Shown: positions 3,679 through 49,566, numbered from the stretch's first letter. The stretch is DNA of 64,000 nucleotides from Candidatus Iainarchaeum sp. (GCA_026414365.1 JAOAJD010000001.1:167687-231686); one strand, 5' to 3'. The notes: generated from the sequence alone by a model not told the origin. Numbers and translations: made by a program.

Positions 3679-4908
3679 TTAAACATCTAGAAGTTCTAAT
3701 GCTTTCTCATTATTGCCTTCTATCAACAAGTCCAATATTTTCATATAGTCGAACGCATCTCCAAAGTCAGATTCTTTTAAATTTTTATCTAAAATGGAAA
3801 CAGCAATATCCTTTATTGATTGCTTCTTTGCATATTCATCTCTTAGATTTTTTATCTTTTCTTTAAAATTAGTAACTTCTAAATCTTTTGATATAGAAAC
3901 TATTGCCACATCTTTGAACTGATCTTCTATTCTTGCTAAGTTTAAATCGGCTAAAGACAAACCTTTTGCCAAACTACCTTTTAAACTTATTTTAACTAAT
4001 GGCTTCAAGCTAAAATTATTTTTCAGCAAATCTGAAATTTCTTTAACTACTATATTTCTTGTTTCTTCGGTGGTTGCATTATTCAAAAAAATTTCTTTAT
4101 AGAAAAAATCTCTCTGATTTCTTATCTCTAAAAACTTTGCATCTTTTGTCTCAGAATCAACTATAAATAGACCTTTTCTTGAGTTGGCTTCTATTTTTTT
4201 CATCTGGGTAGTTATTGTTGAACCAGGCAATAAAAAGAGTGATTTTCCTAAAGTATCTTTTTTATGCCAATGCAAATGCCCATTAACTAAGACATCAAAA
4301 CCTTTTGGTAAGTCTGCCAAAGAAATTGTTGCAATCATATCGTCGCCAAAAGGTAAAAACTCTTTTAATGATTGGTGCATCACAAAAATATTAAAGCAAT
4401 CTTTTATCGGTTCTGGATTTAGATATTTTAAAACCTCCAAAGCCCTCTTTTCTGGTACGCCACCCATACCATAAACAACTACTTTTTCATTATTGCTCTC
4501 AAATAAAACAGATTCTCCATGTATTTTTAACAACAAGCCTGTTTCTTGCATTATGTCTAAAATATTGACTTTATCAGATCCTCTAAATTCGTGAGTACCG
4601 AAAATAGCAACTATGGGAAAATTCTTAAAAAAGAACTCTTGATTGTTTCTCTTACCTGATATAAATTTAGCACTCTTTATTTTGCTATTTTGTTTGTTAA
4701 GAGAAGAAAAAAGTTTTATTGCTTTATAAAAACATTCTTGTGAAGGAACTGCTTCATCGAAAATGTCTCCTCCTAAAACAATCAAGTCAGCACCTTCAGA
4801 AATAGCAATATTAAAAGCCTCTTCTGCGTTTTTATAACTTTCATCTCCTCTTTCCTTTTCGTTAAAACCCAAATGCAAATCTGAAATTATCGCAATCTTC
4901 ATAAACAT
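3679..4908 (-). CDS. mre11: Mre11-like DNA repair metallophosphoesterase
   Basis: Calcineurin-like phosphoesterase motifs in Mre11 order: DLHLG, GGDIFDE, GTHE (motif III, Thr in place of usual Asn), GHLHWH; ~409 aa. Confidence 0.5.
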   Translation of the reverse strand: MFMKIAIISDLHLGFNEKERGDESYKNAEEAFNIAISEGADLIVLGGDIFDEAVPSQECFYKAIKLFSSLNKQNSKIKSAKFISGKRNNQEFFFKNFPIVAIFGTHEFRGSDKVNILDIMQETGLLLKIHGESVLFESNNEKVVVYGMGGVPEKRALEVLKYLNPEPIKDCFNIFVMHQSLKEFLPFGDDMIATISLADLPKGFDVLVNGHLHWHKKDTLGKSLFLLPGSTITTQMKKIEANSRKGLFIVDSETKDAKFLEIRNQRDFFYKEIFLNNATTEETRNIVVKEISDLLKNNFSLKPLVKISLKGSLAKGLSLADLNLARIEDQFKDVAIVSISKDLEVTNFKEKIKNLRDEYAKKQSIKDIAVSILDKNLKESDFGDAFDYMKILDLLIEGNNEKALELLDV

Positions 4909-5081: not shown

Positions 5082-5152
5082 GCTGGAGTGGCAGAACGGC
5101 CATGCACTCGCCTGCAGAGCGAGCAAAGGGAGTTCGACTCTCTCCTCCAGCT
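5082..5152 (+). tRNA. tRNA-Cys (anticodon GCA)
   Basis: Cloverleaf folds by eye: acceptor GCTGGAG/CTCCAGC, anticodon stem CTCGC/GCGAG with loop CTGCAGA (GCA at 5114-5116), T-arm GGGAG-TTCGACT-CTCTC, 3-bp D-stem; no CCA encoded. Confidence 0.8.
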
Positions 5153-24822: not shown

Positions 24823-25821
24823 TTATTTTTGCTTCTTATCAGTAAACAACATCTTTTTGTAATAAACAATTGGGTTTTTAACATTACAATTATCTTTGCA
24901 CAAACCATATTCTCTCAGTTTGGCACAGCTTGGAGGTAAAAACCTTTTTTTAGAAAAAATCCTATCTACGTGATATTTTGTTTTGGTCTCATTATAATTT
25001 GGAGCATTTTTAAACAATTCAATAATACTTTCCTTTTTCATCCCTACCGCGGCCAAAAATACTGCTAAATAGAACCTTGCAATGTGAGTTAAATTCGAAC
25101 CTGACAAAAGAGAGAAATAAAGCTCTCTATAACAAGCAGGGAAAGCATTTGGATATATGTTTTGAATTTTGTTAAAAGAAATTTTATACTTCCTAGAAAA
25201 AATATCATTTCTTATCGAATTTGCTTCTTCTTTTAAACTCGAAGGTAACCCATCAACACTACAAGGCAAAGTATTTAATAACTCTGAGAAAATATGATTT
25301 GACAAAAATTTTGCAAATTTTTCCCGACTCAAATAAACATTTCCCGCATCTAACCTCTGATTAACAAGTTTAAAACTGTTATCATTATCAAAACAATCAA
25401 CTTTTAAGAACGAAAACAATGGGATAACTACAAAATCATTTTTAGTAGAAAATTCAATATTCAAATCATATGCAAGGTCAAAAACTTCAGAAAAATTATT
25501 ATTAGTTAAATTATCATAGGTTCTCTTTGCAATATATTTTGCAAACCTTGTGTATAACTCTTCATTAGCTATTATTGAAACATAGATTTTTGCCAGAGGG
25601 TAAGCCAAAATATGATCTAATAATAACTCTTTAGAGTAAACTTTGATATCATAGGGGCTTAGAAATGTTCTAAAATAAGAATCGAGGATTATTCCCTTTG
25701 CTAAATCTTTTGTTTCTAAACTAACTTTTGAAAAATCATCAACATAGTATTTAACAATATCTCTTGCAACAGAAGAAAACGGATATTTAGCCGCAAACTG
25801 AAACTCTTCCTGAGAAAACAT
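24823..25821 (-). CDS. priL: DNA primase large subunit PriL
   Basis: C-terminal Fe-S cysteines (PACY...CAKLREYGLCKDNC), helical body, adjacent to priS. Confidence 0.7.
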   Translation of the reverse strand: MFSQEEFQFAAKYPFSSVARDIVKYYVDDFSKVSLETKDLAKGIILDSYFRTFLSPYDIKVYSKELLLDHILAYPLAKIYVSIIANEELYTRFAKYIAKRTYDNLTNNNFSEVFDLAYDLNIEFSTKNDFVVIPLFSFLKVDCFDNDNSFKLVNQRLDAGNVYLSREKFAKFLSNHIFSELLNTLPCSVDGLPSSLKEEANSIRNDIFSRKYKISFNKIQNIYPNAFPACYRELYFSLLSGSNLTHIARFYLAVFLAAVGMKKESIIELFKNAPNYNETKTKYHVDRIFSKKRFLPPSCAKLREYGLCKDNCNVKNPIVYYKKMLFTDKKQK

Positions 25822-36020: not shown

Positions 36021-36935
36021 ATGAAACCATTACAAATTGTCTTTTTAGGCACAGCTGCTTCTGTTCCAACAAGAGATAGAAATCTTAGCAGTATCGCTTT
36101 AAAATATTCTGGGAACTGGTTACTATTTGATTGTCCAGAAGGTACACAAAGACAAATGATGGCAACAAATGTTAGTTATATGAAGATAAAATATGTTTTT
36201 ATATCACATTTTCATGGAGATCATTTTTTAGGTTTGCCAGGCCTTTTAGCAACGATGAGTATGCATGGCAGAGAAGAAACTTTGACTATCTTTGGTCCTA
36301 AAGGAGTGGAAGATTATATAAAAAAAGCTGTAGAATTAAGTATGTTACAAATAAACTTCCAAATAAATTGTGTACAAATAAAAAGTGGAAGGATTCTAAA
36401 AGAGGATGAATATGAAATAAAAGCATTTAAGCTTAATCACGATGTACCTTGTTTCGGTTTTGTTTTTAAAGAGGAAGATAAATTAGGAGAATTTAAGAGA
36501 GACAAGGTAATTAAGTTAGGCATCCCAGAAGGACCTTTATGGAGGAAACTACAAAAGGGTGAAAATATAATCTATGGAGAGAAACAAATAAGACCTGAAG
36601 ATGTTTTAGACTTATCTAAAGCAAAAAAAGGAAAGAAAATTTCTATTGTGTTTGACACTAGAGCAAATTACAGCTATATTGAAGCAATTAAAGAATCAGA
36701 TATTCTAATACACGAAGCTTCATTCACTGAAGAATTAAAAAAAAGAGCTATAGAAACAAAACACAGTACTGCCTTAGAAGCCGCAAATATTGCAAAAGAA
36801 GCAAAAGTAAGAAAATTATATCTATTCCATATAAGTTCTCGATACAAAGACCCTTTAGAAATAGAGAACGAAGCTAAGAAAATGTTTGCCAATAGCTATG
36901 TAGCAAAAGATTTACTAAAAATAGAAATCTTGTGA
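36021..36935 (+). CDS. rnz: ribonuclease Z (tRNA 3' endonuclease)
   Basis: MBL motif ISHFHGDHF, GTA...P start, ~304 aa. Confidence 0.8.
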   Translation: MKPLQIVFLGTAASVPTRDRNLSSIALKYSGNWLLFDCPEGTQRQMMATNVSYMKIKYVFISHFHGDHFLGLPGLLATMSMHGREETLTIFGPKGVEDYIKKAVELSMLQINFQINCVQIKSGRILKEDEYEIKAFKLNHDVPCFGFVFKEEDKLGEFKRDKVIKLGIPEGPLWRKLQKGENIIYGEKQIRPEDVLDLSKAKKGKKISIVFDTRANYSYIEAIKESDILIHEASFTEELKKRAIETKHSTALEAANIAKEAKVRKLYLFHISSRYKDPLEIENEAKKMFANSYVAKDLLKIEIL

Positions 36936-37654
36936 TAGCAATGAAAATTAAGAAGGCTGTAATATTAGCTGCAGGAAAAGGCTTAAGATTAAGGCCATTA
37001 ACAGAAAACGTTCCTAAAACAATGGTAAAACTAAAAGGCAAACCAATATTAGAATGGATCTTAGACTCTCTTAATGATACTTCTTTCGAAGAAGTCATAA
37101 TAGTTGTTGGTTACAAAAAAGAGAATATAATTAATTATTTCGGAAATAAATATAAAAACTTAAAGATAAGTTATGTAGTCCAAGAAGAACAAAAAGGTAC
37201 TGCCCATGCTATTAGTCTTGTTGAAGGCAGAGTAGAAAAAAAATTTTTAGTAATGAATGGAGATGTCATTGCAAGTAGTAAATTAATTAGTGAGATTTCA
37301 GAATATGAACCTTGGGATGAATGGGATATAGTAATAGTAGGTAGAGAAGTTGACGATCCTTGGAGATATGGAATAATAAGTTTTGAAAATGAAAAAATAA
37401 ATGACATTGTGGAAAAACCGATGCCTGGAGAAGAACCATCTAAAATTGCAAATACAGGTATATATAGGTTTGATACAAAAATATTCTCTGCAATAAAGAT
37501 AACTCCTTTGAGCAGAAGGAACGAATATGAAATAACTGATTCTATTAAGATAATGATAAATTTAGGAGCAAAAGTAAAATTACTAATAAGTCAAGAGAAG
37601 ATTATTGATATAGGGACAAAACAAGATCTCGAAGAAGCTGAAAAATTGCTCTAA
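36932..37654 (+). CDS. sugar-phosphate nucleotidyltransferase (NTP-transferase family)
   Basis: AVILAAGKGLRLRPLTENVPK signature; GTG start overlapping rnz stop, or ATG at 36941. Confidence 0.65.
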   Translation: MIAMKIKKAVILAAGKGLRLRPLTENVPKTMVKLKGKPILEWILDSLNDTSFEEVIIVVGYKKENIINYFGNKYKNLKISYVVQEEQKGTAHAISLVEGRVEKKFLVMNGDVIASSKLISEISEYEPWDEWDIVIVGREVDDPWRYGIISFENEKINDIVEKPMPGEEPSKIANTGIYRFDTKIFSAIKITPLSRRNEYEITDSIKIMINLGAKVKLLISQEKIIDIGTKQDLEEAEKLL

Positions 37655-37677
37655 ACTATTTATAAGTTTTCAGAATT

Positions 37678-38382
37678 CTAAATTCTCTTACCTTTAGCTT
37701 TTGAAGTATCTAAAGTTTGACCGGGTTTCAGTATTATGGGTTCAGTTTTTAGAATACTTTTTTCTATTTTTATCTTAAACTCATTAGGGTCTGCCTTAAT
37801 ATCATCCCAAGTGTTATAATGCATGGGTATTACAAAATCAGGCTTTATCATTTTAGTGGCTCTAACTGCATCTACAACATCCATAGTATAACTACCACCT
37901 ATTGGCAACAATGCAACATTAGCACGTATCTTGGCAAAATAGTCCATTAAATCTGTGTCTCCTGCATGAAAAACCGACTCGTCTTTAATTCTTATCAAAT
38001 AACTTAATGGATAGAAAGAGGTTGGATGATGAGATGGAAAACATTCAATGAACACATCTTTAATATTCAAATTAGAAAAACTTTTCGCTGGTTTTAAAAT
38101 AGAGCTTGGTAAATTTAGTTCCTTTAGCAAATCCTCATTTCCCACGACAAAACACATATTCTTCCTTGCAACTTTTTCTACAAACTCTTTGTCAAAATGA
38201 TCAAAATGCTCGTGGGTTAACAAAATTAAATCTATTCCATTAATATGTTTATCAATATTTGGGCACCTAACAAGCTCTGTTAGTTTCTTTTCTGATTTAC
38301 AAGATACGAAAGGATCTATCAAAATGTTAAAACCATAAGATGAGATTTTAAAAAAAGCATGTCTGAAATAAGTTATCTTCAT
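37678..38382 (-). CDS. metallo-beta-lactamase-fold hydrolase
   Basis: LLTHEHFDHFD motif. Confidence 0.6.
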   Translation of the reverse strand: MKITYFRHAFFKISSYGFNILIDPFVSCKSEKKLTELVRCPNIDKHINGIDLILLTHEHFDHFDKEFVEKVARKNMCFVVGNEDLLKELNLPSSILKPAKSFSNLNIKDVFIECFPSHHPTSFYPLSYLIRIKDESVFHAGDTDLMDYFAKIRANVALLPIGGSYTMDVVDAVRATKMIKPDFVIPMHYNTWDDIKADPNEFKIKIEKSILKTEPIILKPGQTLDTSKAKGKRI

Positions 38383-38520
38383 CTCATCCCTAAATAAATT
38401 TGAGAGTGCAAAAAAATAAAAACAGTTTTATAAGTAAAATTAAAACACATTTTTAATTTATTTTTAAAATAGTAATTTTATAAACAACAAAGTAGAATTA
38501 TTTTATGTGAATGCAAAAAG

Positions 38521-39318
38521 GTGAAGGCATTGAGAAAAATCTTTTTTTTATTTATCCTATTTATTTCTTTTGTAATTTTCTCCCATAGTGTTATCTTAGA
38601 GAAGTTAGAAATAGAAGTAGAAGTGAACAAAGAAGGATATGCAACAGTAAAAGAGACTTATAAGATATCTTTTACGAATAGTTATGACGAATATAATTTT
38701 AATCAGATAAAAACAAAAAATGGATCTTCTTTAACTATGTGGAGTTTAGATTATAACTGGCTCTCCCCTAAATTTGGGAACTTAGCAGGACAAGAAATGC
38801 CAATAAGTAAATCAAATATGACTTTTGAAGAAAAGGAGAATAAAATAATAGTAAATTACGAACTATCAAAGCCAATTGCTTTCATTATGGAAAACAAACC
38901 AAGGGTATCGAATTGGCGTATTTATGATTCCTTCTTTCAAAAATTTATAAAAAACGATCTAATAAATATACCGCAAAACACAGTAGTTAATATAATATTG
39001 CCCAAAGAAGCATATATTGATAAAGATATTCTAACAAAGCAAGCAGTAGTGAATGAAAACATAATAACACTAACAGGAATTTCAACAAATTATATAAACA
39101 TAAGATATGAGATAAAGAAACCCATAGGAAGTTCTAACAGTATGATAGAAAATTTCTTGAGAAATACAACAATAGGTAACTTAATAATAATCCTATCTTT
39201 AATAACATTACTACTAATCTTTGTCTTTAGAAAGAGAATCAAAGAAAAGATAGAAAATTATATCGTAGAGCATACAGAATTTGAAATAAAAGAAATAGAA
39301 GAAGAAGTAGAAGCTTAA
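38521..39318 (+). CDS. hypothetical secreted protein with C-terminal membrane anchor
   Basis: N-terminal signal/TM (IFFLFILFISFVIF), C-terminal TM (IGNLIIILSLITLLLIFVF) then charged tail. Confidence 0.3.
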   Translation: MKALRKIFFLFILFISFVIFSHSVILEKLEIEVEVNKEGYATVKETYKISFTNSYDEYNFNQIKTKNGSSLTMWSLDYNWLSPKFGNLAGQEMPISKSNMTFEEKENKIIVNYELSKPIAFIMENKPRVSNWRIYDSFFQKFIKNDLINIPQNTVVNIILPKEAYIDKDILTKQAVVNENIITLTGISTNYINIRYEIKKPIGSSNSMIENFLRNTTIGNLIIILSLITLLLIFVFRKRIKEKIENYIVEHTEFEIKEIEEEVEA

Positions 39319-39743
39319 TCTTCTTGTGTTTTCTTTTTAAAGATTATTATTTTTTTTATTTCTGGATAAATCGCAGAGTTAAAAGGTATTTTAGAATAAG
39401 CTAGAACGTTTTGTATACTATAATCGTCAGTGATAACTAAGAAATTCTTATTCTTTTTTATAAAATCTAAAGCTAGAGCAACAACACTCAAATCCGCTTC
39501 AGAGATGGCGGTGTTAATTTCAGAAGCTTTCTTTTTGGCTTCAACTAATGATTTCTTTGAAGGAACTCTAATTTTTAATGTTTTGTTTTTTAGTGCATTA
39601 TCCACCAAAAGTTTACTTCTAAAATCCTTAAGTTCTAAAATTGTATTAGGAGTCATATAATAAGAAAATTCTTCAGAGAAAACAAAACTCTGACTGTTTA
39701 TTATTGCAGATGCATCTAATATCAAACAAAGTTTTCTTTTCAT
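39315..39743 (-). CDS. PIN-domain protein
   Basis: N-terminal LILDASAIIN (first conserved Asp of PIN), ~142 aa. Confidence 0.45.
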   Translation of the reverse strand: MKRKLCLILDASAIINSQSFVFSEEFSYYMTPNTILELKDFRSKLLVDNALKNKTLKIRVPSKKSLVEAKKKASEINTAISEADLSVVALALDFIKKNKNFLVITDDYSIQNVLAYSKIPFNSAIYPEIKKIIIFKKKTQED

Positions 39744-39824
39744 AAAAAGAGAAATTAAGAAAAGTAATTTAATAACTTTGAGTTTAATTAATTTTAACTA
39801 TTAGTTAATTAAAATGGTTGCATT

Positions 39825-41288
39825 ATGCAAGATATTGAAATAATTGCAAAAGAACTCAGTGAGATTGAAAGAAAAACAATTTTTGTTTTAGATAAAGATG
39901 TTTATAAAAATGTTGAAAATGTTGCAAAAGAAGCAAAGATTGACAATGACTCTGCAAGAAGAGCATTCGAATGGCTTGTATCAAAAAATCTTGTAGAATT
40001 GTCAATAAAAGAATACGAAAAGATTAGAACAACTGCTGCAGGAAACTCATCTATATCAAAAGGTCTGCCAGAAAGAATATTTATTGAGAAATTATTAGAA
40101 TTGGGTGGCAAAGCAGAGTTGGGAGAGTTAAAAAGAAAATCGTTATTGAATGAACCAGAATTTAATGCTGCAATGGGAATTGCTAAAAGAAATGCTTGGA
40201 TATCTGTTAGAAGGGAACAAGATAAAACAATGATTGAACTTACAGGTTTAGAGAATGAACTTTTAGAAGGTAAATATTATATCGAAAATGCGTTGTTAGA
40301 AATAAAAAATGGCAAAGAAGCAAATCAAAATATTTTAGAAGAACTTATTAGGAGGGGCCTTGTAGAAAAAGTAAAAATAATTGAAAAAGCAATAAAACTT
40401 AATGAAAACGGAGAAAGAGCAAGAGAAATTATATTGAAAACGAAAACAAGAAGCTTTGATGTTAGAGCAAAAGCACCTACAATCTATATAGGAAAGAAAC
40501 AGCCATATGTGCAATTTTTACTCAAAATAAGGAGAAAACTTGTAGAGCTTGGTTTTAAAGAGATGGATGCCCCATTAATAACACAAGAATTTTACAACTT
40601 TGATGTTTTGTTCCAACCACAGAATCATCCAGCTAGGTCTTGGACAGATACTTATCAATTGAAAAAACCTACAGCTGGGAAATTACCTAATTATAAAATA
40701 GTTAAAGCAGTCAAAGAAGCTCACGAAAATGGTGGCAATAGTGGTTCTAGAGGATGGGGTTACAAATGGGATGAAGAAATCGCAAAAAAATTGATGCCAT
40801 CTGCCCATGGCACTGCACACTCTGCAAGACAGTTGGTAAAAGGCATAGAAGTTCCTGGAAAATATTTCGCAATAGCAAGATGTTATAGACCTGATGTGAT
40901 GGATGCTTCACACCTAATCGAATTTAACCAATTAGAGGGTTTTATCGTTGGGGAGGAACTGAACTTTAGACATCTATTAGGAATGTTAAAAAGCTTTGCT
41001 ATAGAAATAGCAGGAGCTGAAAAAGTGAAATTCTATCCTGATTATTATCCTTTCACTGAACCATCAGTACAACTTTCTGCATACAACAAAGAATTAGGAT
41101 GGATCGAATTTGCAGGTGCAGGAATATTTAGACCAGAAATGATGAATGCATTAGGAATAAAGGAAACGGCAATAGCATGGGGCTTAGGAATAGATAGGCT
41201 GGCAATGTTTGCATTAAATATAAAAGATATGAGAAATTTGTTTTCACAAGACTTAAATTGGTTAAGAAATTCTAAGATGATAAAATGA
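39825..41288 (+). CDS. pheS: phenylalanine--tRNA ligase alpha subunit
   Basis: Class II aaRS motifs (FNQLEGFIVGE, FYPDYYPFTEPS, GAGIFRPEM), archaeal N-terminal wH domains. Confidence 0.9.
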   Translation: MQDIEIIAKELSEIERKTIFVLDKDVYKNVENVAKEAKIDNDSARRAFEWLVSKNLVELSIKEYEKIRTTAAGNSSISKGLPERIFIEKLLELGGKAELGELKRKSLLNEPEFNAAMGIAKRNAWISVRREQDKTMIELTGLENELLEGKYYIENALLEIKNGKEANQNILEELIRRGLVEKVKIIEKAIKLNENGERAREIILKTKTRSFDVRAKAPTIYIGKKQPYVQFLLKIRRKLVELGFKEMDAPLITQEFYNFDVLFQPQNHPARSWTDTYQLKKPTAGKLPNYKIVKAVKEAHENGGNSGSRGWGYKWDEEIAKKLMPSAHGTAHSARQLVKGIEVPGKYFAIARCYRPDVMDASHLIEFNQLEGFIVGEELNFRHLLGMLKSFAIEIAGAEKVKFYPDYYPFTEPSVQLSAYNKELGWIEFAGAGIFRPEMMNALGIKETAIAWGLGIDRLAMFALNIKDMRNLFSQDLNWLRNSKMIK

Positions 41289-41746
41289 AAATACCAAAGA
41301 AAAATAGGAATAAAATCAAAGCAGAGAGAGCAATAATGAGAGAATTGGCAAGAACAGGAATACTTAACAAATATGAGATAATGAAAAGAAAGAATGACTT
41401 CATTAACTATGGTAATGTGAGTATTAAATTAATTAAAAAGGCATATAGACCATCATCTAGAGAAATAAAACCTGAAAATTGTACTGAAAAAGAATTTTTT
41501 GAAAAGCTTGAGTCCATAAAAGAAAAAAATGAAAAACTTTACAATAAATACATAGGTCTTCTAACAGAAAGAGCTCATGATAGAAAAACATTCGAGACCT
41601 ATCACATATATTTGCCAAGAGGTGTTAAAAAGAAAGATAAAAGAAAAGAACATGATATTTATCTGGCTTTAAGAAGAGGTTACAAAGGGAAAATGCCAAC
41701 AAATACTAATACAGAGGGTGATAAAGATGGCAGCAAAAAAGATTAA
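41285..41746 (+). CDS. small basic protein, first gene of the pheS-pheT island (translationally coupled to pheS via ATGA)
   Basis: 153 aa, K/R-rich; weak resemblance to family B (KEKN... region); no known motif. Confidence 0.4.
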   Translation: MKIPKKNRNKIKAERAIMRELARTGILNKYEIMKRKNDFINYGNVSIKLIKKAYRPSSREIKPENCTEKEFFEKLESIKEKNEKLYNKYIGLLTERAHDRKTFETYHIYLPRGVKKKDKRKEHDIYLALRRGYKGKMPTNTNTEGDKDGSKKD

Positions 41747-41927
41747 TAAAAAAATGAATAAGTTGATAAAGGTAACTGCTAGAGAATTGGCTAGGATGCC
41801 ACATGTAGGAGCTAGATCAACATATTATCAAGCAAAAGCAATAGCAGAAAGTGGAAAACCTCTAGGGGACCGAGAAAAAAGAGCACTAAGACAAAAAAAA
41901 GGGTTTATAGACATAACAGAAATCTAG
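41718..41927 (+). CDS. small basic protein, family A (short form, divergent member); RHH-like pattern
   Basis: MIKMAAKK...KVTARELARMP...ARSTYYQAKAIAE parallels MIKMSAKK...RTVSKEF... of 43757. Confidence 0.4.
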   Translation: MIKMAAKKINKKMNKLIKVTARELARMPHVGARSTYYQAKAIAESGKPLGDREKRALRQKKGFIDITEI

Positions 41928-42106
41928 ATATATATAGTTAAAAGTTTTTTAATGTTGGAATAACGCGAGAATTGAAAAAACAAACAGAATTTATAAATAA
42001 ACAATAGAATGTTCTAAACAAAGAGACATGAAAACAACCTTTTTTAATAAAACGTAATAATTGATATATTAAAATACAAAAAAATAAAAAAAAAGGAGGA
42101 ATTGAA

Positions 42107-42337
42107 ATGCCAACAAAAAAAACACCACCAGCAAAAAGGACTGTGAGCAAAGAGTTTATGAAGATAGCTAAAGAATATGGGAGGATCCCTTCAGTCCAAA
42201 AAATGCCACCGAGTGCTAGACGCATTGTTAGTGGAGACATAAAATATATGTTAATTACAAAACGAGAATTAGCCCCTGAAGAGAAAAGATTAATTAGAAA
42301 ATTGAGGAGTCAATCAGAGGGAAATAAATCAAAATAA
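42107..42337 (+). CDS. small basic protein, family A (short form); RHH-like pattern
   Basis: PAKRTVSKEFMKIAKEYGRIP...ARRIVSGDIKYML...ELAPEEKRLIRKL; strong SD (AGGAGG) 8 nt upstream. Confidence 0.5.
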   Translation: MPTKKTPPAKRTVSKEFMKIAKEYGRIPSVQKMPPSARRIVSGDIKYMLITKRELAPEEKRLIRKLRSQSEGNKSK

Positions 42338-42635
42338 ACACTAATCTAACAAAAAACAAAAAATTAGTATTGTGACCTATTTAGTAAAAATTAAAGAGTG
42401 TAAGAGGCAATATGGAAAAGAGTAGAGATGCTCTGAAGGTTATGGCTTTTATTTAAATAAACAAAAAATACAGAGATTAAAATTAATAATTTTAGCAACA
42501 AGAGGATAAGTAGAATGTTATATAAAAGATTGAAATGACATTGAATAAGAAAATAATAAAAATGAAATCTGTTTTAAATAAGAATAGCAGAATTATTATA
42601 TAATGATTAAGAATATAATTAGTATATAACGATTA

Positions 42636-43106
42636 ATGATATACAAATTTAATGTTTTAAAGGGGATGTGTTTGGGTGTTAAAAAAACGCCAAAATCAGT
42701 TAGAAAAGAAAGCTTGTTAGTAAGAAGGAATTTGAGGGAGCTAACAAGAAATCCAGAGTATACTAAAGAAGAGATAAAAAAAATGTTGGAAATGCTAAAA
42801 GAAAAGAATAGAGAATTACCAAAAGTGATGAAACAGAACTTACGTAAAAAATATAGAGAATCTCTACAAAAGTCAGCTGACGATAAAAGGCTTTTCGATA
42901 GATATATGGAAAAAATGGCAAAATATAATTATAAAAATCCGAGATTAAGAAAGGCTTTTCTAAATATGATGAACAGGAGAAAACTTGAAAACAAAATAAA
43001 TCAAATCAGGGATTCTAATATTAAGAGAGAAGAGAAAATAGAACAAGAAAAACTCTATAGGAAATTAAAGGATTTTAGTCATGTTGATAATTTTGATTTT
43101 GAATAA
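42636..43106 (+). CDS. small basic protein, family B (probable true start ATG 42666)
   Basis: KTPKSVRKESLLVRRN ... MEKMAKYNYKNPRLRKAF shared with 44180 (51-nt identical DNA segment). Confidence 0.5.
   Translation: MIYKFNVLKGMCLGVKKTPKSVRKESLLVRRNLRELTRNPEYTKEEIKKMLEMLKEKNRELPKVMKQNLRKKYRESLQKSADDKRLFDRYMEKMAKYNYKNPRLRKAFLNMMNRRKLENKINQIRDSNIKREEKIEQEKLYRKLKDFSHVDNFDFE
42909..42959 (+). repeat. 51-nt perfect direct repeat (copy 1) inside family-B genes
   Basis: gaaaaaatggcaaaatataattataaaaatccgagattaagaaaggctttt identical at 42909-42959 and 44415-44465. Confidence 0.8.
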
Positions 43107-43113
43107 GAGATGA

Positions 43114-43182
43114 TAAAATGTCTGCAAAAAAACCTATTAAGAAAATGCAACCTGCTAAAAGGACTGTGAGTAAAGAGTTTAT
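43114..43182 (+). repeat. 69-nt perfect direct repeat (copy 1) spanning RBS and 5' end of family-A genes
   Basis: taaaatgtctgcaaaaaaacctattaagaaaatgcaacctgctaaaaggactgtgagtaaagagtttat identical at 43114-43182 and 43762-43830. Confidence 0.8.
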
Positions 43183-43609
43183 GAAGATAGCTAGAGAATA
43201 TGGGACAATTCCTATAGAGCGCAGATCACAGATTATCAAAAAAATTAGAGAGATGGCGAAAGAAGGTAGAGAATTATCTAGTGAACAAAAAGCAGAGCTA
43301 AGGGAAGAAAGACGAAGTATAGATCCTGTAAGTGCATCTTTTCCAATTAAAGTTATGCCAAGAGTGATAAAAATCATACAAAAAGATGTTAGTGCTGCGA
43401 CACAAATGGATGAAATGCTGCTAAACAGAATTAAGAATACTAAAGAATACTTTGAAAGATATAGGTATCAGAAGAGAGGCGAAAATAAAAGTCAGATACG
43501 GAAAAGGGAAGATAAAAAGAGAAAAGAAAAAAGATTTGAAGATTTTTTGAAATTAGCTATAAAAAGACAAAAAAAGACCTTGATTAATAAGTTTGCAGGT
43601 ACGAATTAA
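43118..43609 (+). CDS. small basic protein, family A (long form with C-terminal extension)
   Basis: N-terminal 21 aa identical to 43757 product (69-nt perfect DNA repeat); C-half MLLNRIKNTKEYFERY... shared with 44628. Confidence 0.5.
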   Translation: MSAKKPIKKMQPAKRTVSKEFMKIAREYGTIPIERRSQIIKKIREMAKEGRELSSEQKAELREERRSIDPVSASFPIKVMPRVIKIIQKDVSAATQMDEMLLNRIKNTKEYFERYRYQKRGENKSQIRKREDKKRKEKRFEDFLKLAIKRQKKTLINKFAGTN

Positions 43610-43756
43610 ATAATGTTTTTGTAAAGACTGGGGGATAAAAGAGAATAAAATATAGAAATAGTTTATTTGCTAAAGTATTGTCAGATAATAAAGGATAATG
43701 CTTTTTATAATGCTTACTTAAGAATAATAAAGGGACATATTTGAACATTTAAGAAG

Positions 43757-43984
43757 ATGATTAAAATGTCTGCAAAAAAACCTATTAAGAAAATGCAACC
43801 TGCTAAAAGGACTGTGAGTAAAGAGTTTATAAGAACGGCCAAAGAAATTGCAAGACTGCCAGAGATTAAAGGATCAAGTTTATCTTCTAGGAAAGCTTTA
43901 ACTGATAGTATAAAAAATATGTTGGCACAGAGAGGAGAATTGACTCCTGAGGAAAAAAGATTATTAAGAAAATTAAACCACTAA
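43757..43984 (+). CDS. small basic protein, family A (short form)
   Basis: MIKMSAKKPIKKMQPAKRTVSKEF...ELTPEEKRLLRKL, paralog of 42107. Confidence 0.5.
   Translation: MIKMSAKKPIKKMQPAKRTVSKEFIRTAKEIARLPEIKGSSLSSRKALTDSIKNMLAQRGELTPEEKRLLRKLNH
43762..43830 (+). repeat. 69-nt perfect direct repeat (copy 2)
   Basis: Identical to 43114-43182. Confidence 0.8.
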
Positions 43985-44179
43985 TAAATAGAGTCTTAAC
44001 TAAGCATGGTTTACAAAAAGTGACCAAATTTAAATAGGGATTTATACAAAATATATGCAGCACAAAAAAATGTCTTAACTGTTTAATAAACATATTATTA
44101 TAAGCTAAAGTACATTATAAGAAAGATTAAATAGAACAAAAAAGTTAGATATTTAGATTTGAAAGGGTGAAGATATAGA

Positions 44180-44593
44180 ATGGTTTGGAAAACGCCAAAA
44201 TCAGCTAGAAAGGAAAGTCTGTTAGTCAGAAAAAACATAGGAGAATTATCAAGAAATCCAACATTTACTAAAAAAAATTTAGAAAACTTGTACAAAATTA
44301 TCAGAGACACTGGAATAGAATTATTATCAGATAAAGGTAAGAAAGCTTTGAGGAGAGAATCTAAGAAAGCGATATCACTCCAAAACGAAGAGAGCGTACT
44401 TATTGATAGATTTTTTGAAAAAATGGCAAAATATAATTATAAAAATCCGAGATTAAGAAAGGCTTTTATTAAAATGATGCTTAGGAGAGAGATCGAAAAT
44501 GAAATAAATAAGTGTAGACAATCAAATATTAAAAAGGAAGAGAAGAGGAAGAGAGAAGAAGAACTTAGGAAGTTGAAAGAAAGCATTGTATAA
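44180..44593 (+). CDS. small basic protein, family B
   Basis: MVWKTPKSARKESLLVRKN...MAKYNYKNPRLRKAF...; paralog of 42636. Confidence 0.5.
   Translation: MVWKTPKSARKESLLVRKNIGELSRNPTFTKKNLENLYKIIRDTGIELLSDKGKKALRRESKKAISLQNEESVLIDRFFEKMAKYNYKNPRLRKAFIKMMLRREIENEINKCRQSNIKKEEKRKREEELRKLKESIV
44415..44465 (+). repeat. 51-nt perfect direct repeat (copy 2) inside family-B genes
   Basis: Identical to 42909-42959. Confidence 0.8.
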
Positions 44594-44627
44594 ACAATGA
44601 AAATAAAGAAAATATCATAAAAGAGGG

Positions 44628-45116
44628 GTGGTAAAAATGTTGAAAAAAAGGATGGAACCAGCACAGAGGACTGTAAGTAAGGAATTTATGAGAATAGCTA
44701 AAGAAACTGGCAGAATTCCTATGGAATATAGACCACAAATAATTAAAAAAATCAAAGAGATGGCAGAAAGGAAAGAAAATTTAACTGTTGGACAAAAAAA
44801 ATTTCTTAGAAAAATGGGTCGCCAGTTATCTTTAAGTGCATACATTTCCCCTGCTGTTATGCCAAAAGTAGAAAAAATTTTAAGTAGAGGTGATAAAAAT
44901 TCAGCAAAGTTGGCAGCAATGTTACTTACTAGGATTAAAAATGCTCGAGAATATTTTGAAAGATATAACTTTTCAGGAAGGGGTGTAACTAAAGCGCAAA
45001 TAAGAAAAATGGAAGACGAAGAGAGAAAAATGGAAAGATTTTTAGATTTCTTAGAGTTAACTGAGAAAAAACAAGGAAAGAACATAATAAAAGGAGGATT
45101 CACAAGTAAAAATTAA
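44628..45116 (+). CDS. small basic protein, family A (long form)
   Basis: PAQRTVSKEFMRIAKETGRIP...MLLTRIKNAREYFERYNF...; paralog of 43118. Confidence 0.5.
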   Translation: MVKMLKKRMEPAQRTVSKEFMRIAKETGRIPMEYRPQIIKKIKEMAERKENLTVGQKKFLRKMGRQLSLSAYISPAVMPKVEKILSRGDKNSAKLAAMLLTRIKNAREYFERYNFSGRGVTKAQIRKMEDEERKMERFLDFLELTEKKQGKNIIKGGFTSKN

Positions 45117-45314
45117 CTATTTTTCTAATGAAGTACCTAAGAAAAAGTTTATTTATGGGAATATGGAAAAAAATAATTTTGGAAAAATTCAAAAAATATA
45201 ATATAAATAATTATAAGATATGGTAACATGACTTTTCTGAGTAGAGGTTAAAAAGATAATTAGATTATCTTCTTTAAAGAAACCTACCTTAAATAAGGAA
45301 TGAGAGGAAGCCAA

Positions 45315-46973
45315 ATGCCAAAACTGGAAATAAGTAAAAAAGATTTAGAAATACTTGTAGGGAAAAAATTTAAGGATATGGAAGAATTAGAAGAAGTTCT
45401 CATGTATGCCAAAGTAGAACTAGACGGCCAGGAGAATGACAAACTATTTTTAGATGCAAAAGACACAAACAGACCTGATCTTTGGAGCGCGGAGGGTATT
45501 GCAAGACAATTAAAAGCCTCTTTGGGCTTAAAAAAAGGTTTACCAAAATATGATGTCAGAAAATCAAATCTAAAAGTTAAAATAGAGGCTAGTGTTAAAG
45601 ATGTTAGACCATTAACATATTGTGCAATAATAAAAGATGTCAAAATTACTGAAGAATCTCTAATACAAATGATTCAATTGCAAGAAAAAGTTGCAATGAC
45701 TTTTGGTAGAAAAAGAAAAGAAGCGGCGATAGGTATTTATGATTATGATAAAATAAAAGGAAACATAAGATTTTATGGTGCTGATCCAAAAACAAAAAAA
45801 TTTGTTCCTCTAGAATTTAAAGAGGAACTTACTTTAGAAGAAATTTTAGAGCTGCATCCAAAAGGCATAGAATATGGGCATTTGCTTAAAGGTAAAGAAG
45901 TTTATCCAATATTTGAGGACTCCGAAGGCAATGTACTTTCAATGCCACCAATAATTAACTCTAATTATAGCGGCAAAGTTACAGAGGAAACTAAAAATCT
46001 TTTTATAGAAGTTAGTGGATTCAAAGAAGAGACTATCTCAACTGCTTTAAATGTCTTAGTAACTGCATTTGCAGATAGAGGTGGCAAAATATTCTCGGTG
46101 AAGGTTATTGATTCAAACGGAAAAGAAAGATGGACTCCAGATTTAAGACCTAAAAAAATTGAGATTGAGATAGATGATATAAAAAAACTTAGTGGGTTAA
46201 ATCTAAAAAATAAAGAAATCTTAGAATTGTTAAAGAAAATGTGTTATGATGTAAATATAAAGGGAAACAAGATTTTCTGCGAATACCCTGCATACAGAAA
46301 TGATATATTACATCATGTTGATGTAATTGAAGATGTGATAATTGCGTACGGTTACAATAAAATAGAGCCTGAAAAATTAAACATTCCAATAATTGGCTAC
46401 GAAAAAGAAGAAACTAGATATATTGATACTGTAAGAGAAGTTTGCATAGGATTGAAACTACAAGAAGTTCTAACATTTACATTGACGTCAAAAGCGAAGC
46501 AGAGTGATTTAGTATATGAAAACAAAGAAGACTTGGTTGAGATACTAAATCCAATCTCAGAAAATTGGTCTGTCTTCAGGAAAAACATATTTCCGGAGCT
46601 TTTAGAATTTTTAGAAAAAAATAAAAATGCTGAATACCCACAAAATATTTTTGAGATAGGAAAAACTATAAAATTGGATGAGGAGTCAGAAACCGGCGTG
46701 TGTGAAAAAGATAAGCTCTGCATAGTTCTAACAGGTAGAGATTATAACTATACAAAGATAAAATCTTTCTTTGATGCAATAAACGAAAATTTAGACTTAA
46801 ATCTTAATATAAGCGAAGGCGAAATAAAATTTTTAGAAAGTGGAAAGAGCGCTTATATAATGAAAGGAGATAAAAAGATTGGTTTTATTGGAGAATTAAA
46901 CAAGAACGTATTAAAAAAATTTAAATTAAAGTTTCCTGTAGTTTTATTAGAATTCGAGTTGGTTGTTAAATAA
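45315..46973 (+). CDS. pheT: phenylalanine--tRNA ligase beta subunit
   Basis: Archaeal PheT architecture (B3/4-like, B5, catalytic-like domain), ~552 aa; start chosen at MPKLEISKKDL (ORF track begins 15 nt earlier). Confidence 0.85.
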   Translation: MPKLEISKKDLEILVGKKFKDMEELEEVLMYAKVELDGQENDKLFLDAKDTNRPDLWSAEGIARQLKASLGLKKGLPKYDVRKSNLKVKIEASVKDVRPLTYCAIIKDVKITEESLIQMIQLQEKVAMTFGRKRKEAAIGIYDYDKIKGNIRFYGADPKTKKFVPLEFKEELTLEEILELHPKGIEYGHLLKGKEVYPIFEDSEGNVLSMPPIINSNYSGKVTEETKNLFIEVSGFKEETISTALNVLVTAFADRGGKIFSVKVIDSNGKERWTPDLRPKKIEIEIDDIKKLSGLNLKNKEILELLKKMCYDVNIKGNKIFCEYPAYRNDILHHVDVIEDVIIAYGYNKIEPEKLNIPIIGYEKEETRYIDTVREVCIGLKLQEVLTFTLTSKAKQSDLVYENKEDLVEILNPISENWSVFRKNIFPELLEFLEKNKNAEYPQNIFEIGKTIKLDEESETGVCEKDKLCIVLTGRDYNYTKIKSFFDAINENLDLNLNISEGEIKFLESGKSAYIMKGDKKIGFIGELNKNVLKKFKLKFPVVLLEFELVVK

Positions 46974-48293
46974 TTTTGTTTGTAATTCTCGTTTGTTTTC
47001 AGACTCTTCTCTAATTTTTCTTTTAGCATGTGACTTTTCTCCATTTTTTTCGCGACCCTCTAAAACCTTCATTAAATCTGTAGGTATTTTTTCATCCCCC
47101 AAAAGAAAAGATATCTCCTTTTCTTCGAAACCAAATAACTTTGTGAAAGCTATTGCATAGTTTTCATTTTGGAAAAGCTGCTTCAAATAAGGGATATCTT
47201 GCGCAATAATCTCTCTTTTGGAACTGTGTGTTTTAGCTTTTATCTTCTCGGCTATAGAGTTTAAAATCTCTTTTTTAGCTGAAATTCTGGATAAATATAA
47301 AAGTATCTTTGGAAACTGATAAGGAACAAAGTCTGATTTTTGTTTTGTCCTGGACAGTGCTACTCCTGCACTAAGGAAATCATAATAAAATTTTTTGAGC
47401 GAATAATTTTGTCTTCTAATAATTCTAGTTTCATATAAACTTGCTTTACTAACATAATCGAAGGCATTAAAAATATCTGACCCATCGTATTGTCTCGGAA
47501 TGTTCTCTTCTATCCAAAGAAAAAGAAGATCTTCACTAACATCTGAAAAATTTATTGCAGATCTGGCTTCTTCAAAGTTTTTAGCTCTAAAGATGTGTTT
47601 CATTACTTCAAATATTTTTTCATACCTGTCTCTAGTGTAAACTTCACTAATTCTTTGCATATCTATTTTTTTACCATAAGACAAACTTTGGAGATCTAAT
47701 AAAGCCGACCTTACATCACCATAAGACTTTGATGCTAACTCTTTCAATGCTTCTTTATCATATTCTATATTCTCTTTTCTACAAATATTTTCTAAATGAT
47801 TGGCTATAGAGATATAGTTAACTTTTCTAAACTCTAAAATTTTACATTCTAATCTAATTTGGTTTAACTTTCTGTCAGAGTATACATCATTAGCTGTTAA
47901 TATTATAGGATTTCTTGCCTCTCTAATTAATGTTAATATTGCTGAAGAGGCTCCCCTATCATTTGCACTTAAGCCATCAATTTCATCTAATAATATTAAT
48001 CTTAAATTACCAGAAAAAGAAGTGTTAAAAGCTGCGGCACCTGCTATTCTTTCTATTGACTCTTTGTCCCTTAAATCAGAAGCATTCATTTCAAAAATGT
48101 CCCAATTATTCAACTTCGCAACTAAATGTGCCAAACATGTTTTACCAACCCCAGAAGGACCAACAAAAAGCAAAGGTATTTGCTTTTTACCATCATTCCA
48201 AAGTTTTGCCCACTTTAAAACTGATTCTACAATTTCTTGATTTCCTATAAACTCCCTTTCATTTTTAGGAAAGTATTTTTCAGTAAACAGCAT
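46947..48293 (-). CDS. rfcL: replication factor C large subunit
   Basis: AAA+ Walker A GPSGVGKTCLAH, DEID Walker B, sensor regions, K/E-rich C-terminal tail typical of archaeal RfcL. Confidence 0.8.
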   Translation of the reverse strand: MLFTEKYFPKNEREFIGNQEIVESVLKWAKLWNDGKKQIPLLFVGPSGVGKTCLAHLVAKLNNWDIFEMNASDLRDKESIERIAGAAAFNTSFSGNLRLILLDEIDGLSANDRGASSAILTLIREARNPIILTANDVYSDRKLNQIRLECKILEFRKVNYISIANHLENICRKENIEYDKEALKELASKSYGDVRSALLDLQSLSYGKKIDMQRISEVYTRDRYEKIFEVMKHIFRAKNFEEARSAINFSDVSEDLLFLWIEENIPRQYDGSDIFNAFDYVSKASLYETRIIRRQNYSLKKFYYDFLSAGVALSRTKQKSDFVPYQFPKILLYLSRISAKKEILNSIAEKIKAKTHSSKREIIAQDIPYLKQLFQNENYAIAFTKLFGFEEKEISFLLGDEKIPTDLMKVLEGREKNGEKSHAKRKIREESENKRELQTKLFNNQLEF

Positions 48294-48372
48294 AAAAAAG
48301 ACATAACAAAAGTTAATAAAATTAATTTGGTTAGAGTATCAATTTATAACTACTATTTAAAACTAATTTTAT

Positions 48373-49566
48373 ATGTTGATTGGCATCGTAGGAAAACCTA
48401 ATTGTGGAAAAAGTACTTTTTTCGCTGCTTCTACACTTGTGGATGTAGAAATAAGTAACAGGCCTTTTGTAACAATAAAACCAAATCAAGGAATAGCTTA
48501 TGTAACTAGAAAGTGTGTACACGAAGAAAAAGGTGTTCCTTGTAATCCTGTAAATAGCAAATGTGAAAAAGGAATTAGACTAATACCTATAACTCTTTTA
48601 GATGTTGCCGGATTAGTGCCAGATGCTTGGAAAGGTAGAGGTTTAGGTAATCAATTTATGAATGATCTAATGCAAGCCAAAGCATTGATACATGTAGTAG
48701 ATGCTTCTGGTAGTACCGATGCCGAAGGGAATGTAGTAGAAAAAGGAAGTCATGACCCTTGTGAAGACATTAGGTTTTTAGAGAGAGAAATAAACTATTG
48801 GATAAAAGGAATATTGGATGAAAATTGGAACAAAATAAAAAAGACTGCAGAGATAGATAAAAATCCAGCATCAAACATTGCAAAACAACTTAGCGGTTTA
48901 GGTATAAGTGAAGATGACATTAAGAAAGCAATAATAAAACTGAAACTGCCCGACAGATTATCATTATGGGATGATCAGAATATATTAGAATTCTGCAATG
49001 AAGTTAGAAAGATAAGTAAACCTATGTTAATTGCAGCAAATAAGATGGATATTGACAGTTCTTTAGAAAACTATAAAAGAATGTTAAAAGAGTTTCCAGA
49101 ATATCAAATAGTCCCATGTTGTGCAGAGGCAGAATTGGCTTTAAGGAAAGCTGCAAAAAGTGGGTTAATAGAATATATACCCGGCGGAAATAATTTTAAT
49201 TATCTCGGCGAAGTGAATGAAAAACAAAAAAAAGCATTAGATTTTATAAAATCTAATATATTAGAAAAATTCAAAAGCACAGGTGTACAAGAAGCAATAA
49301 ATAAAACAACATTCGACTTACTTAAATTAATAGTTGTCTACCCTGTACAAGACCAAAACAAATGGACTTCTGGCAAAGGCAATATATTGCCCGATGCTTA
49401 TTTGTTAAAAGATGGTTCTACAGCTATAGATTTAGCATATGAAATACATACTGAATTTAAAGATAGATTTTTAGCAGCAATAGACTGTAAAAGTGGCCAG
49501 AAAATAGGGAGAGAACACAAACTAAAAATGGATGATGTAATAAAAATTGTTTTAAGACCAGCATAA
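48373..49566 (+). CDS. Obg-family GTPase (YchF/OLA1-like) with TGS-like C-terminus
   Basis: P-loop GIVGKPNCGKSTFF at extreme N-terminus, DVAGLV (G3), NKMD (G4). Confidence 0.55.
   Translation: MLIGIVGKPNCGKSTFFAASTLVDVEISNRPFVTIKPNQGIAYVTRKCVHEEKGVPCNPVNSKCEKGIRLIPITLLDVAGLVPDAWKGRGLGNQFMNDLMQAKALIHVVDASGSTDAEGNVVEKGSHDPCEDIRFLEREINYWIKGILDENWNKIKKTAEIDKNPASNIAKQLSGLGISEDDIKKAIIKLKLPDRLSLWDDQNILEFCNEVRKISKPMLIAANKMDIDSSLENYKRMLKEFPEYQIVPCCAEAELALRKAAKSGLIEYIPGGNNFNYLGEVNEKQKKALDFIKSNILEKFKSTGVQEAINKTTFDLLKLIVVYPVQDQNKWTSGKGNILPDAYLLKDGSTAIDLAYEIHTEFKDRFLAAIDCKSGQKIGREHKLKMDDVIKIVLRPA

Follow-up and report, generated by a model that had tools for sequence, protein, structure and literature searches.

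Organization of the pheS–pheT Locus

We analyzed a 64,000-nt stretch of the chromosome of Candidatus Iainarchaeum sp. (GCA_026414365.1, JAOAJD010000001.1:167687–231686; hereafter, the window), a low-GC archaeon (approximately 29% G+C in the window) of the lineage Iainarchaeia (Ca. Diapherotrites, DPANN). The genes encoding the alpha and beta subunits of phenylalanyl-tRNA synthetase (PheRS), pheS and pheT, are separated there by a 4.0-kb island of eight open reading frames (ORFs; O1–O8), all on the plus strand (Table 1). The island encodes a lineage-restricted, old, and tandemly expanded group of small basic helical orphan proteins, which is under purifying selection and occupies a junction prone to guest genes.

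Both synthetase genes were intact. The PheS proteins of relatives aligned across residues 1–487 of the product of pheS, which has kept its own N-terminal winged-helix region (a TrmB-like Pfam match). The stop codon of pheS and the start codon of O1 overlap as ATGA (41285–41288), and O2 overlaps O1; physical coupling to pheS is limited to these two genes. An AT-rich spacer of 184–199 nt, itself following a T5 run at 45120, precedes pheT, and the true start of pheT is likely the second ATG (45315), located after GAGGA. A first-pass annotation made from the sequence alone had reported an island of eight small basic ORFs (found here to be 66–163 aa long) splitting pheS and pheT, the ATGA overlap with a basic 153-aa ORF, and the resumption of pheT at 45315; the first two were confirmed, and the third agrees with the likely start.

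The eight proteins contain 15–19% Lys and 8.5–12% Arg and almost no Cys, His, or Trp; their net charge is +11 to +25, the pI is 10.0–10.9, and the grand average of hydropathy (GRAVY) is −0.7 to −1.4. The six of them that were looked up (MCX8158259, MCX8158262–66) are all annotated as "hypothetical protein" and are encoded by one contig (522 kb) of a Diapherotrites metagenome-assembled genome. Start codons were chosen by Shine–Dalgarno-like motifs (GGTGAT, GGAGG, or GAGGA) and GenBank protein lengths, which point to 41727 (after GGTGAT), 42672, and 44637 as the likely true starts of O2, O4, and O8, respectively.

Table 1. Genes and repeat features of the pheS–pheT locus (positions counted from the first nucleotide of the window; alternative starts separated by a slash).
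Feature	Position	Strand	Description
pheS	39825–41288	+	PheRS alpha subunit, 487 aa; Pfam tRNA-synt_2d (E = 4.8e-78)
O1	41285–41746	+	153 aa, pI 10.0; start overlaps pheS stop; annotated as N3D73_01180; singleton in a collection of 15 billion proteins
O2	41718/41727–41927	+	69/66 aa; overlaps the end of O1; most diverged member, links groups A and B
O3	42107–42337	+	76 aa; short form "b", N-domain only; GGAGG 7 nt upstream
O4	42636/42672–43106	+	Group A long form; annotated start TTG at 42672 (144 aa); N3D73_01195
O5	43118–43609	+	Group B long form, 163 aa; starts 11 nt past the O4 stop; N3D73_01200
O6	43757/43766–43984	+	Short form "b", 75/72 aa
O7	44180–44593	+	Group A long form, 137 aa
O8	44628/44637–45116	+	Group B long form; annotated start 44637 (159 aa), 43 nt past the O7 stop
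Tandem duplication, period ~1508 nt	42666–45116	+	O4–O5 pair (42666–43609) corresponds to O7–O8 pair (44180–45116)
Putative gene-conversion tract	43114–43198	+	First 85 nt of O5 including the leader; 92% identical to 43762–43846 in O6
pheT	45300–46973	+	PheRS beta subunit; Pfam tRNA_synthFbeta (4.3e-41), B5 (2e-18), B3_4 (3e-11)

Coding Potential of the Island

Sequence comparisons indicate that the island, at least from O2 to O8, is real coding sequence in the plus frame. Paralog pairs matched each other by tblastn at E = 1e-32 to 1e-40, and dN/dS between paralogs was 0.18–0.53. In the annotated frame, it was 0.31 for O4/O7, 0.28 for O5/O8, and 0.18 for O3/O6, with synonymous sites saturated in all three pairs (dS > 1). 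This frame had the lowest dN/dS of the six and was the only one devoid of stop codons in all six paired genes. All eight sense frames were stop-free, and each other frame contained stops in at least one paralog pair; as expected, the second-lowest dN/dS was found for the antisense frame sharing wobble positions, which is interrupted in O4, O5, and O7. Shine–Dalgarno-like GGAGG or GGTGAT motifs were present upstream of the island starts. O1 has no close paralog, so the dN/dS evidence covers only the paralogous ORFs.

The island proteins contain 17.3% Lys and 10.5% Arg versus 10.8% and 3.9% in the 52 other genes of the window; this 2.7-fold enrichment in Arg indicates that their basicity is more than a consequence of AT bias. 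It also bears on the reading of the ORFs as chance frames in purine-rich, AT-rich DNA or as pseudogene remains. Such a reading would suit the lack of homologs and domain matches described below, and AT-rich genomes do give K/N/I-rich ORFs; however, the low dN/dS at saturated dS, the stop-free state of the sense frames alone, the Shine–Dalgarno-like motifs, and the excess of Arg leave it hardly any probability, and for O2–O8, it is already largely refuted.

Long hydrophobic ORFs of 100–162 aa lie on the minus strand opposite the island genes (41938–42240, 43075–43377, and 44615–45103). These antisense ORFs (e.g., 44615–45103) were rejected as genes: stops in the paralogous copies and higher dN/dS identify them as by-products of Lys/Glu/Arg-rich sense coding.

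Paralogous Group and Tandem Cassettes

The proteins of the pairs O4/O7, O5/O8, and O3/O6 are 51%, 52%, and 54% identical, respectively. A repeat search detected the tandem duplication as several repeat families (D2–D5, D12) with spacing of 1505–1508 nt and 70–77% nucleotide identity, and dS values of 1.2–1.35 show that the duplication of the O4–O5 pair as O7–O8 is old. Similarity between the type B proteins (O5, O8) spans their whole length; that of the type b proteins (O3, O6) to type B covers the N-terminal ~70 residues of the latter, within which the motif PAKRTVSKEF(M/I) is shared. The type A proteins (O4, O7) have a different C-terminal half in common (EKMAKYNYKNPRLRKAF). Alignment of all eight sequences revealed an N-terminal pattern of ~70 residues: a basic arm, helix 1 ending with RELxRxP or EYGRIP, helix 2, and helix 3 of the form ELxxxxKxxLRK. 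The ~65-aa module shared by O2–O8, whose arm is rich in Lys and Pro, stands alone in O2, O3, and O6, and the long forms carry it joined to a basic helical C-terminal extension, either A (O4, O7) or B (O5, O8).

The link between the types was evaluated by comparing profile scores with those of 2000 composition-preserving shuffles per target. No shuffle of O2 scored as high as the native sequence with profile B or with profile A. With profile B+O2, the score of O4 was reached by 1 shuffle and that of O7 likewise by 1; with profile A+O2, the numbers were 1 for O5, 9 for O8, 10 for O6, and 29 for O3. O1 was reached by 19 shuffles with profile A+O2 and was not significant against B. Local hmmsearch with the N-domain profiles of groups B and A also matched O2 (E = 1e-3 and 0.02, respectively). 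Since hhalign of the full-length B and A profiles was not significant alone (E = 0.046, probability 1%), the kinship of A and B is based on the shuffle tests via O2. According to these tests, O2–O8 form one paralogous group with three architectures, with O1 as a doubtful member. The lineage-specific paralog expansion proposed in the first-pass annotation is therefore upheld: seven of the eight ORFs share the domain, and a unit of ~1.5 kb is tandemly duplicated.

The gene order reads A'-B'-b / A-B-b / A-B, i.e., three tandem cassettes. Within the A–B pairs, the genes lie close together: O1 and O2 overlap, 11 nt separate O4 from O5, and 34–43 nt separate O7 from O8. AT-rich spacers of 148–300 nt precede O3, O4, O6, O7, and pheT, and runs of T5–T6 occur only after O2, O5, and O8, the second gene of each pair. 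The O5 and O6 proteins are only about 48–53% identical overall, yet the first 85 nt of O5 are almost the same as the corresponding part of O6 (Table 1), and a b-group model matched the 5' end of O5 at E = 5e-24 (nhmmer). So high an identity in genes of half-identical proteins points to recent gene conversion between O5 and O6.

The 12-mer GATGATAAAATG occurs just twice in the window, at the pheS stop/O1 start (41275–41288) and before O5 (43108–43121), and a one-base variant of it lies before O6 (43755–43769). The alternative readings of O2, O6, and O8 begin with M-I/V-K-M, resembling the C-terminus of the pheS product (...KMIK). These features may reflect copying of a segment of the pheS 3' end or convergence on a GGTGAT-like ribosome-binding site.

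Decayed gene copies in the intergenic spacers were unsupported by nhmmer and stop-tolerant hmmsearch, which gave one marginal match (45117–45299, E = 0.06). No Rfam match at E ≤ 1 was obtained for noncoding RNA in the spacers, and the fold of 42338–42665 was not unusually stable (z-score −0.8).

Family, Fold, and Homology Searches

None of the eight proteins could be assigned to a significant family in Pfam, NCBIfam, PHROGs, or PADLOC. Matches below threshold were regarded as noise: LEDGF for O1 (E = 0.002), phrog_867 "DNA binding domain" for O5 (0.008), and DUF7170 for O2 (0.24). PADLOC gave no match at E ≤ 0.1, and no toxin or antitoxin domain was found by the Pfam, NCBIfam, and PHROGs scans. 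No helix-turn-helix (HTH) family of Pfam was matched at E ≤ 1. Ribosomal models of Pfam and NCBIfam did not match the eight proteins, which moreover had no counterpart at the 66 related loci described below.

No significant match was obtained when the PDB was searched by sequence with profiles A3 and A5 as well as O2. A match to H2B (E = 0.002) was rejected as an artefact: a tandem-H2B construct was matched twice, at 9.5 bits each, over 24 residues. The chromatin proteins considered (histone fold, Alba, Cren7/Sul7, MC1) were rejected as well: Pfam gave no match to them, and the AlphaFold2 (AF2) model lacked the long central helix of the histone fold. The AF2 model of O5 was all-helical, with a predicted local distance difference test score (pLDDT) of 62.8 and a predicted template modeling score (pTM) of 0.32. 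The model of the N-domain, built for O3 from the eight-paralog alignment, reached a pLDDT of 70.7 and a pTM of 0.38 and comprised a basic tail (residues 1–14) and three helices (15–25, 35–51, and 57–75). Fold searches with the AF2 model did not return a DNA-binding fold. With the Pfam, NCBIfam, PHROG, PADLOC, PDB, and fold searches all empty, the first-pass statement that none of the proteins belongs to an assignable known family holds.

Homologs outside this genome were sought in collections of up to 15 billion proteins. The full HMMER profile of group B, run against 1.84 billion representative proteins, had two matches, the window's own O8 and O6. Indexed searches with group A and O1 in a collection of 5.8 billion clusters recovered only the window's own proteins, and the six island proteins looked up in the same collection were singleton clusters on one contig. 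A contig look-up gave no record encoding O5 or O8. Within the window, no additional copy of an island gene was found. Given this restricted distribution, the adjacency of the paralogs, and the selection acting on the proteins, the array is an orphan gene group that is limited to one lineage and was expanded by tandem duplication.

Composition of the Island and Its Genomic Context

Pfam, PHROGs, and NCBIfam scans and the ORF list revealed no integrase, transposase, replication, or capsid gene in 41.3–45.3 kb. The repeat search found no direct or inverted repeats bounding the island; what it detected were repeats between the paralogs inside the island and short pairs of weak similarity. The sole tRNA gene of the window, tRNA-Cys, is located at 5082, so no tRNA target lies by the island; the family scans and the tRNA search thus agree with the first-pass report of an island lacking integrase, transposase, and flanking tRNA. 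The G+C content is flat (0.25–0.32) across the island and its flanks, and synonymous codon usage is host-like, with a relative synonymous codon usage distance of 0.047 versus a host-gene mean of 0.071. Searches for viral and plasmid homologs (IMG/VR pattern scans, tblastn against GenBank phages and PLSDB plasmids, and BFVD fold search) found none.

These data bear on the possibility that the island is an integrated virus or plasmid that decayed, losing its mobility and structural genes and leaving basic orphan ORFs behind. Archaeal viruses typically have small, basic orphan ORFs that all point the same way, dark-matter islands frequently prove to be integrated elements (PMC6393860), and a free-standing LAGLIDADG-like gene occupies the same junction in a Woesearchaeota relative. 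However, the island lacks an integrase, a capsid or replication gene, att-like repeats, and a tRNA target, cannot be told from the host by codon usage or G+C content, has no match among viral sequences, plasmids, or predicted viral structures, and consists of one paralogous group instead of mixed genes; we regard a decayed element as improbable. With host-like codon usage and no donor found, an origin in situ would fit just as well as capture.

The surrounding genes are housekeeping ones. A nine-gene block (36021–49566) comprising tRNase Z, nucleoside triphosphate (NTP) transferase, metallo-beta-lactamase, a 265-aa hypothetical protein, PIN_6 ribonuclease, pheS, pheT, replication factor C (RFC) large subunit, and Obg-like GTPase is collinear and in the same orientation in at least 10 Iainarchaeia relatives at only 45–65% protein identity, a synteny that is unusually stable for such divergence. 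Because the block is collinear in relatives, the island represents an insertion or expansion within a stable block.

Elsewhere in the window, a 945-aa protein with a signal-peptide-like N-terminus and a Pfam S_layer_C match (E = 8e-19) is encoded at 13941–16778 (minus strand), and the most tetranucleotide-divergent part, roughly 10–19 kb, lies around this gene. Many genes of the window (e.g., at 285, 3679–4908, and 24823–25821) have an AT-rich TATA-like sequence directly upstream and no Shine–Dalgarno motif, which suggests leaderless transcripts. Unlike many other window genes, operon-internal genes and island genes carry GGTG or GGAGG motifs.

The pheS–pheT Junction in Related Genomes

Relatives of pheS (34–66% identity) were found at 66 loci of GTDB species representatives and JGI metagenomes, which collapse to 52 distinct loci, 5 of them uninformative. 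Among the 47 informative distinct loci, pheT was located directly downstream (adjacent or overlapping) in 26 and past an insert of 250–1492 nt in 16; in the other 5, no pheT occurred within the remaining sequence of at least 250 nt. The first-pass statement that the two genes nearly always lie next to each other is correct for gene order and, in this part of the archaeal tree, incorrect for contiguity. Nor is the split exceptional, as had been supposed: the two closest relatives (L028 and L030, JGI metagenome contigs with 64–66% pheS identity) also carry inserts. The insert of the window is the largest among the loci surveyed; it marks the far extreme of a widespread arrangement and does not stand alone as a disruption of the operon. 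DPANN archaea tolerate insertions at this junction, where many lineages carry unrelated guest genes. No relative of O1–O8 was detected at any of the 66 loci.

The guests include HIT with or without ASCH (L017, L018), two ASCH proteins and GNAT (L020), a membrane protein with GNAT and NIF3 (L016), GNAT (L055), and PNPOx (L050). The product of the LAGLIDADG-like gene of Woesearchaeota (L025:7878–9119, also L056) is 413 aa long and matches LAGLIDADG and winged-helix models weakly. At L032:7224–7593, a MazE/AbrB-like ORF of 44 aa is followed by a gene for an HTH protein. The inserts of the two closest relatives (L028:7314–8073, L030:1324–2084) form a conserved module, in which an ORF of 77–82 aa overlaps a DUF6036/DUF2204-type nucleotidyltransferase gene of 178–182 aa; the L028 copy passes the Pfam thresholds for DUF6036 and DUF2204. 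This module is probably a toxin–antitoxin-like pair in a housekeeping context.

The guests of the two closest relatives and of L032 are relevant to the idea that the A–B pairs are selfish or conflict modules, i.e., toxin–antitoxin-like addictive cassettes or fast-evolving defence/counter-defence pairs multiplied by tandem duplication at a permissive junction. The three copies of a bicistronic pair architecture and the presence of small paired genes of this kind at the same junction favor it. Classical antitoxins are acidic and are paired with unrelated toxins; in the island, by contrast, both partners are strongly basic and homologous in the N-domain. No toxin, antitoxin, or defence match was obtained in PADLOC, Pfam, or PHROGs, and dS above 1 under purifying selection corresponds to long stable retention and not to rapid turnover. 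On balance, we consider conflict modules unlikely, though worth bearing in mind.

Three Iainarchaeia loci (L008:5421–5795, L009:3305–3610, L014:11447–11848) each contain one small basic coiled-coil ORF of 101–133 aa, which fills the gap exactly, with overlapping start/stop codons. Their assignment as orthologs of O1 or of the group was unsupported: the top external match was L009 (E = 0.07–0.47), and shuffle-controlled Smith–Waterman comparisons were not significant. No significant similarity among the three was found after composition control either; each could have arisen independently, or they could be evolving extremely fast.

Such gap-filling ORFs, together with the translational coupling of O1 to pheS, might point to operon-linked accessory factors with tRNA-Phe or PheRS as the binding partner or with another role in translation. 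HIT and ASCH families act on nucleotides or bind RNA, and their genes at the junction of other DPANN lineages would agree with that role. Nevertheless, after composition control, no kinship links the three ORFs with one another or with the island group, and most relatives have nothing at the junction, which argues against a conserved PheRS partner. Furthermore, pheS keeps its own N-terminal winged-helix region, and a single enzyme would hardly account for eight paralogs. Accessory factors of PheRS or translation therefore have a small likelihood.

Proposed Origin and Function of the Island

The explanation we prefer combines an orphan array with nucleic-acid binding, joint action of A and B proteins, and several transcription units. 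Old tandem duplications produced the three A–B(–b) cassettes, which purifying selection has kept and gene conversion has partly homogenised. The basic arm and three-helix module of the island proteins would bind DNA or RNA. Nucleic-acid binding is our best guess, inferred from the charge, the Arg enrichment, and the basic arm with its predicted three-helix module; the weak PHROG "DNA binding domain" match of O5, although sub-threshold, was also counted toward it. Because the bicistronic layout recurs and the partners have a domain in common, we propose that A and B proteins act together, possibly as heteromers formed via the shared N-domain. The first-pass annotation had proposed probable co-expression of the island with the operon. 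The AT-rich spacers and T-runs suggest several transcription units: O1 and O2 would be translated from the pheS transcript, and transcription of the remaining genes, including pheT, probably starts from separate promoters within the AT-rich spacers.

Several points weigh against this explanation. The confidence of the AF2 models is low to moderate (pLDDT 63–71, pTM 0.32–0.38), and even the three-helix topology must be regarded as provisional. The relationship of O1 to the group is marginal (19/2000 shuffles). Promoters and terminators were judged by eye, and TATA-like strings and T-runs are common at 29% GC. Finally, copies with more than 50% identity could exist elsewhere in the genome beyond the window. 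We therefore give the combined picture about an even chance, the main uncertainty being biochemical function.

Another possible course is that the array was born de novo in the pheS–pheT spacer, or diverged there past recognition, and expanded as an "operon hitch-hiker", an origin to which we assign a low probability. Cassettes of this type, devoid of mobility genes, would persist by being wedged between the genes of an essential enzyme's two subunits and partly translationally coupled to them, so that their deletion or silencing would risk pheT expression. The placement of the 12-mer GATGATAAAATG and the unrelated gap-filling ORFs in the three relatives are hints of hitch-hiking, and neither is proof.

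Taken alone, the island is one more uncharacterised group in the archaeal "dark matter" and a tidy example of orphan expansion. If, as in the preferred explanation, its proteins bind nucleic acid or pair with each other, they would represent a new small-protein domain, known from a single DPANN genome. More broadly, guest genes have repeatedly settled at the DPANN pheS–pheT junction: in at least one third of the sampled lineages, it is occupied, and the families involved are many and unrelated. The junction provides a convenient natural system for studying tolerance to insertions in an essential two-subunit operon as well as the birth and expansion of orphan genes.

Comparison with Known Systems

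The island resembles type II and type IV toxin–antitoxin operons, including the MNT/DUF6036 pairs at the junction of L028 and L030, in its small, multi-copy, tightly spaced bicistronic pairs in a housekeeping context. Unlike these operons, it has no detected toxin or antitoxin domain, and its partners share a domain and are both strongly basic. The N-module, with ~65–75 aa, an unstructured basic arm, and three predicted helices, is similar to small basic HTH/three-helix DNA-binding proteins (homeodomain-like, excisionase-type HTH), and the O2 segment VTARELARMPHVGARSTYYQ looks HTH-like by eye, which is a lead and not a result. It differs from HTH proteins in having no match to an HTH model of Pfam, and fold searches with the tentative AF2 model returned no DNA-binding fold.

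With the other guests of the DPANN junction (HIT, ASCH, GNAT, NIF3, PNPOx, LAGLIDADG-like, and small membrane proteins), the island shares the position, the strand, and, often, overlapping start/stop codons. However, those guests are one to four genes of recognisable families occupying 250–1492 nt, whereas the island consists of eight orphan paralogs in 4.0 kb. For toxin–antitoxin systems, mobile elements, chromatin proteins, and HTH regulators alike, at least one defining feature that was tested gave no positive result, so the array is filed under none of them.

A disproportionately large share of the genes in DPANN genomes is reported to lack annotation (Makarova, Wolf and Koonin 2019, PMC6393860). 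Archaeal dark-matter islands, which are particularly numerous in DPANN, are contiguous groups of short, narrowly distributed hypothetical genes, often with internal duplications, and a connection to conflict systems or integrated elements is common; many of these islands could be tied by a signature gene to integrated elements, defence, or secretion systems (PMC6393860). Unlike many of these islands, the array has no signature gene, consists of a single paralogous group, and splits the subunits of an essential enzyme within a conserved housekeeping block. It nevertheless shares with them the contiguous short "hypothetical" genes, the narrow spread, the internal duplications, and the DPANN host, and the dark-matter island is the closest described category into which the array fits (PMC6393860).

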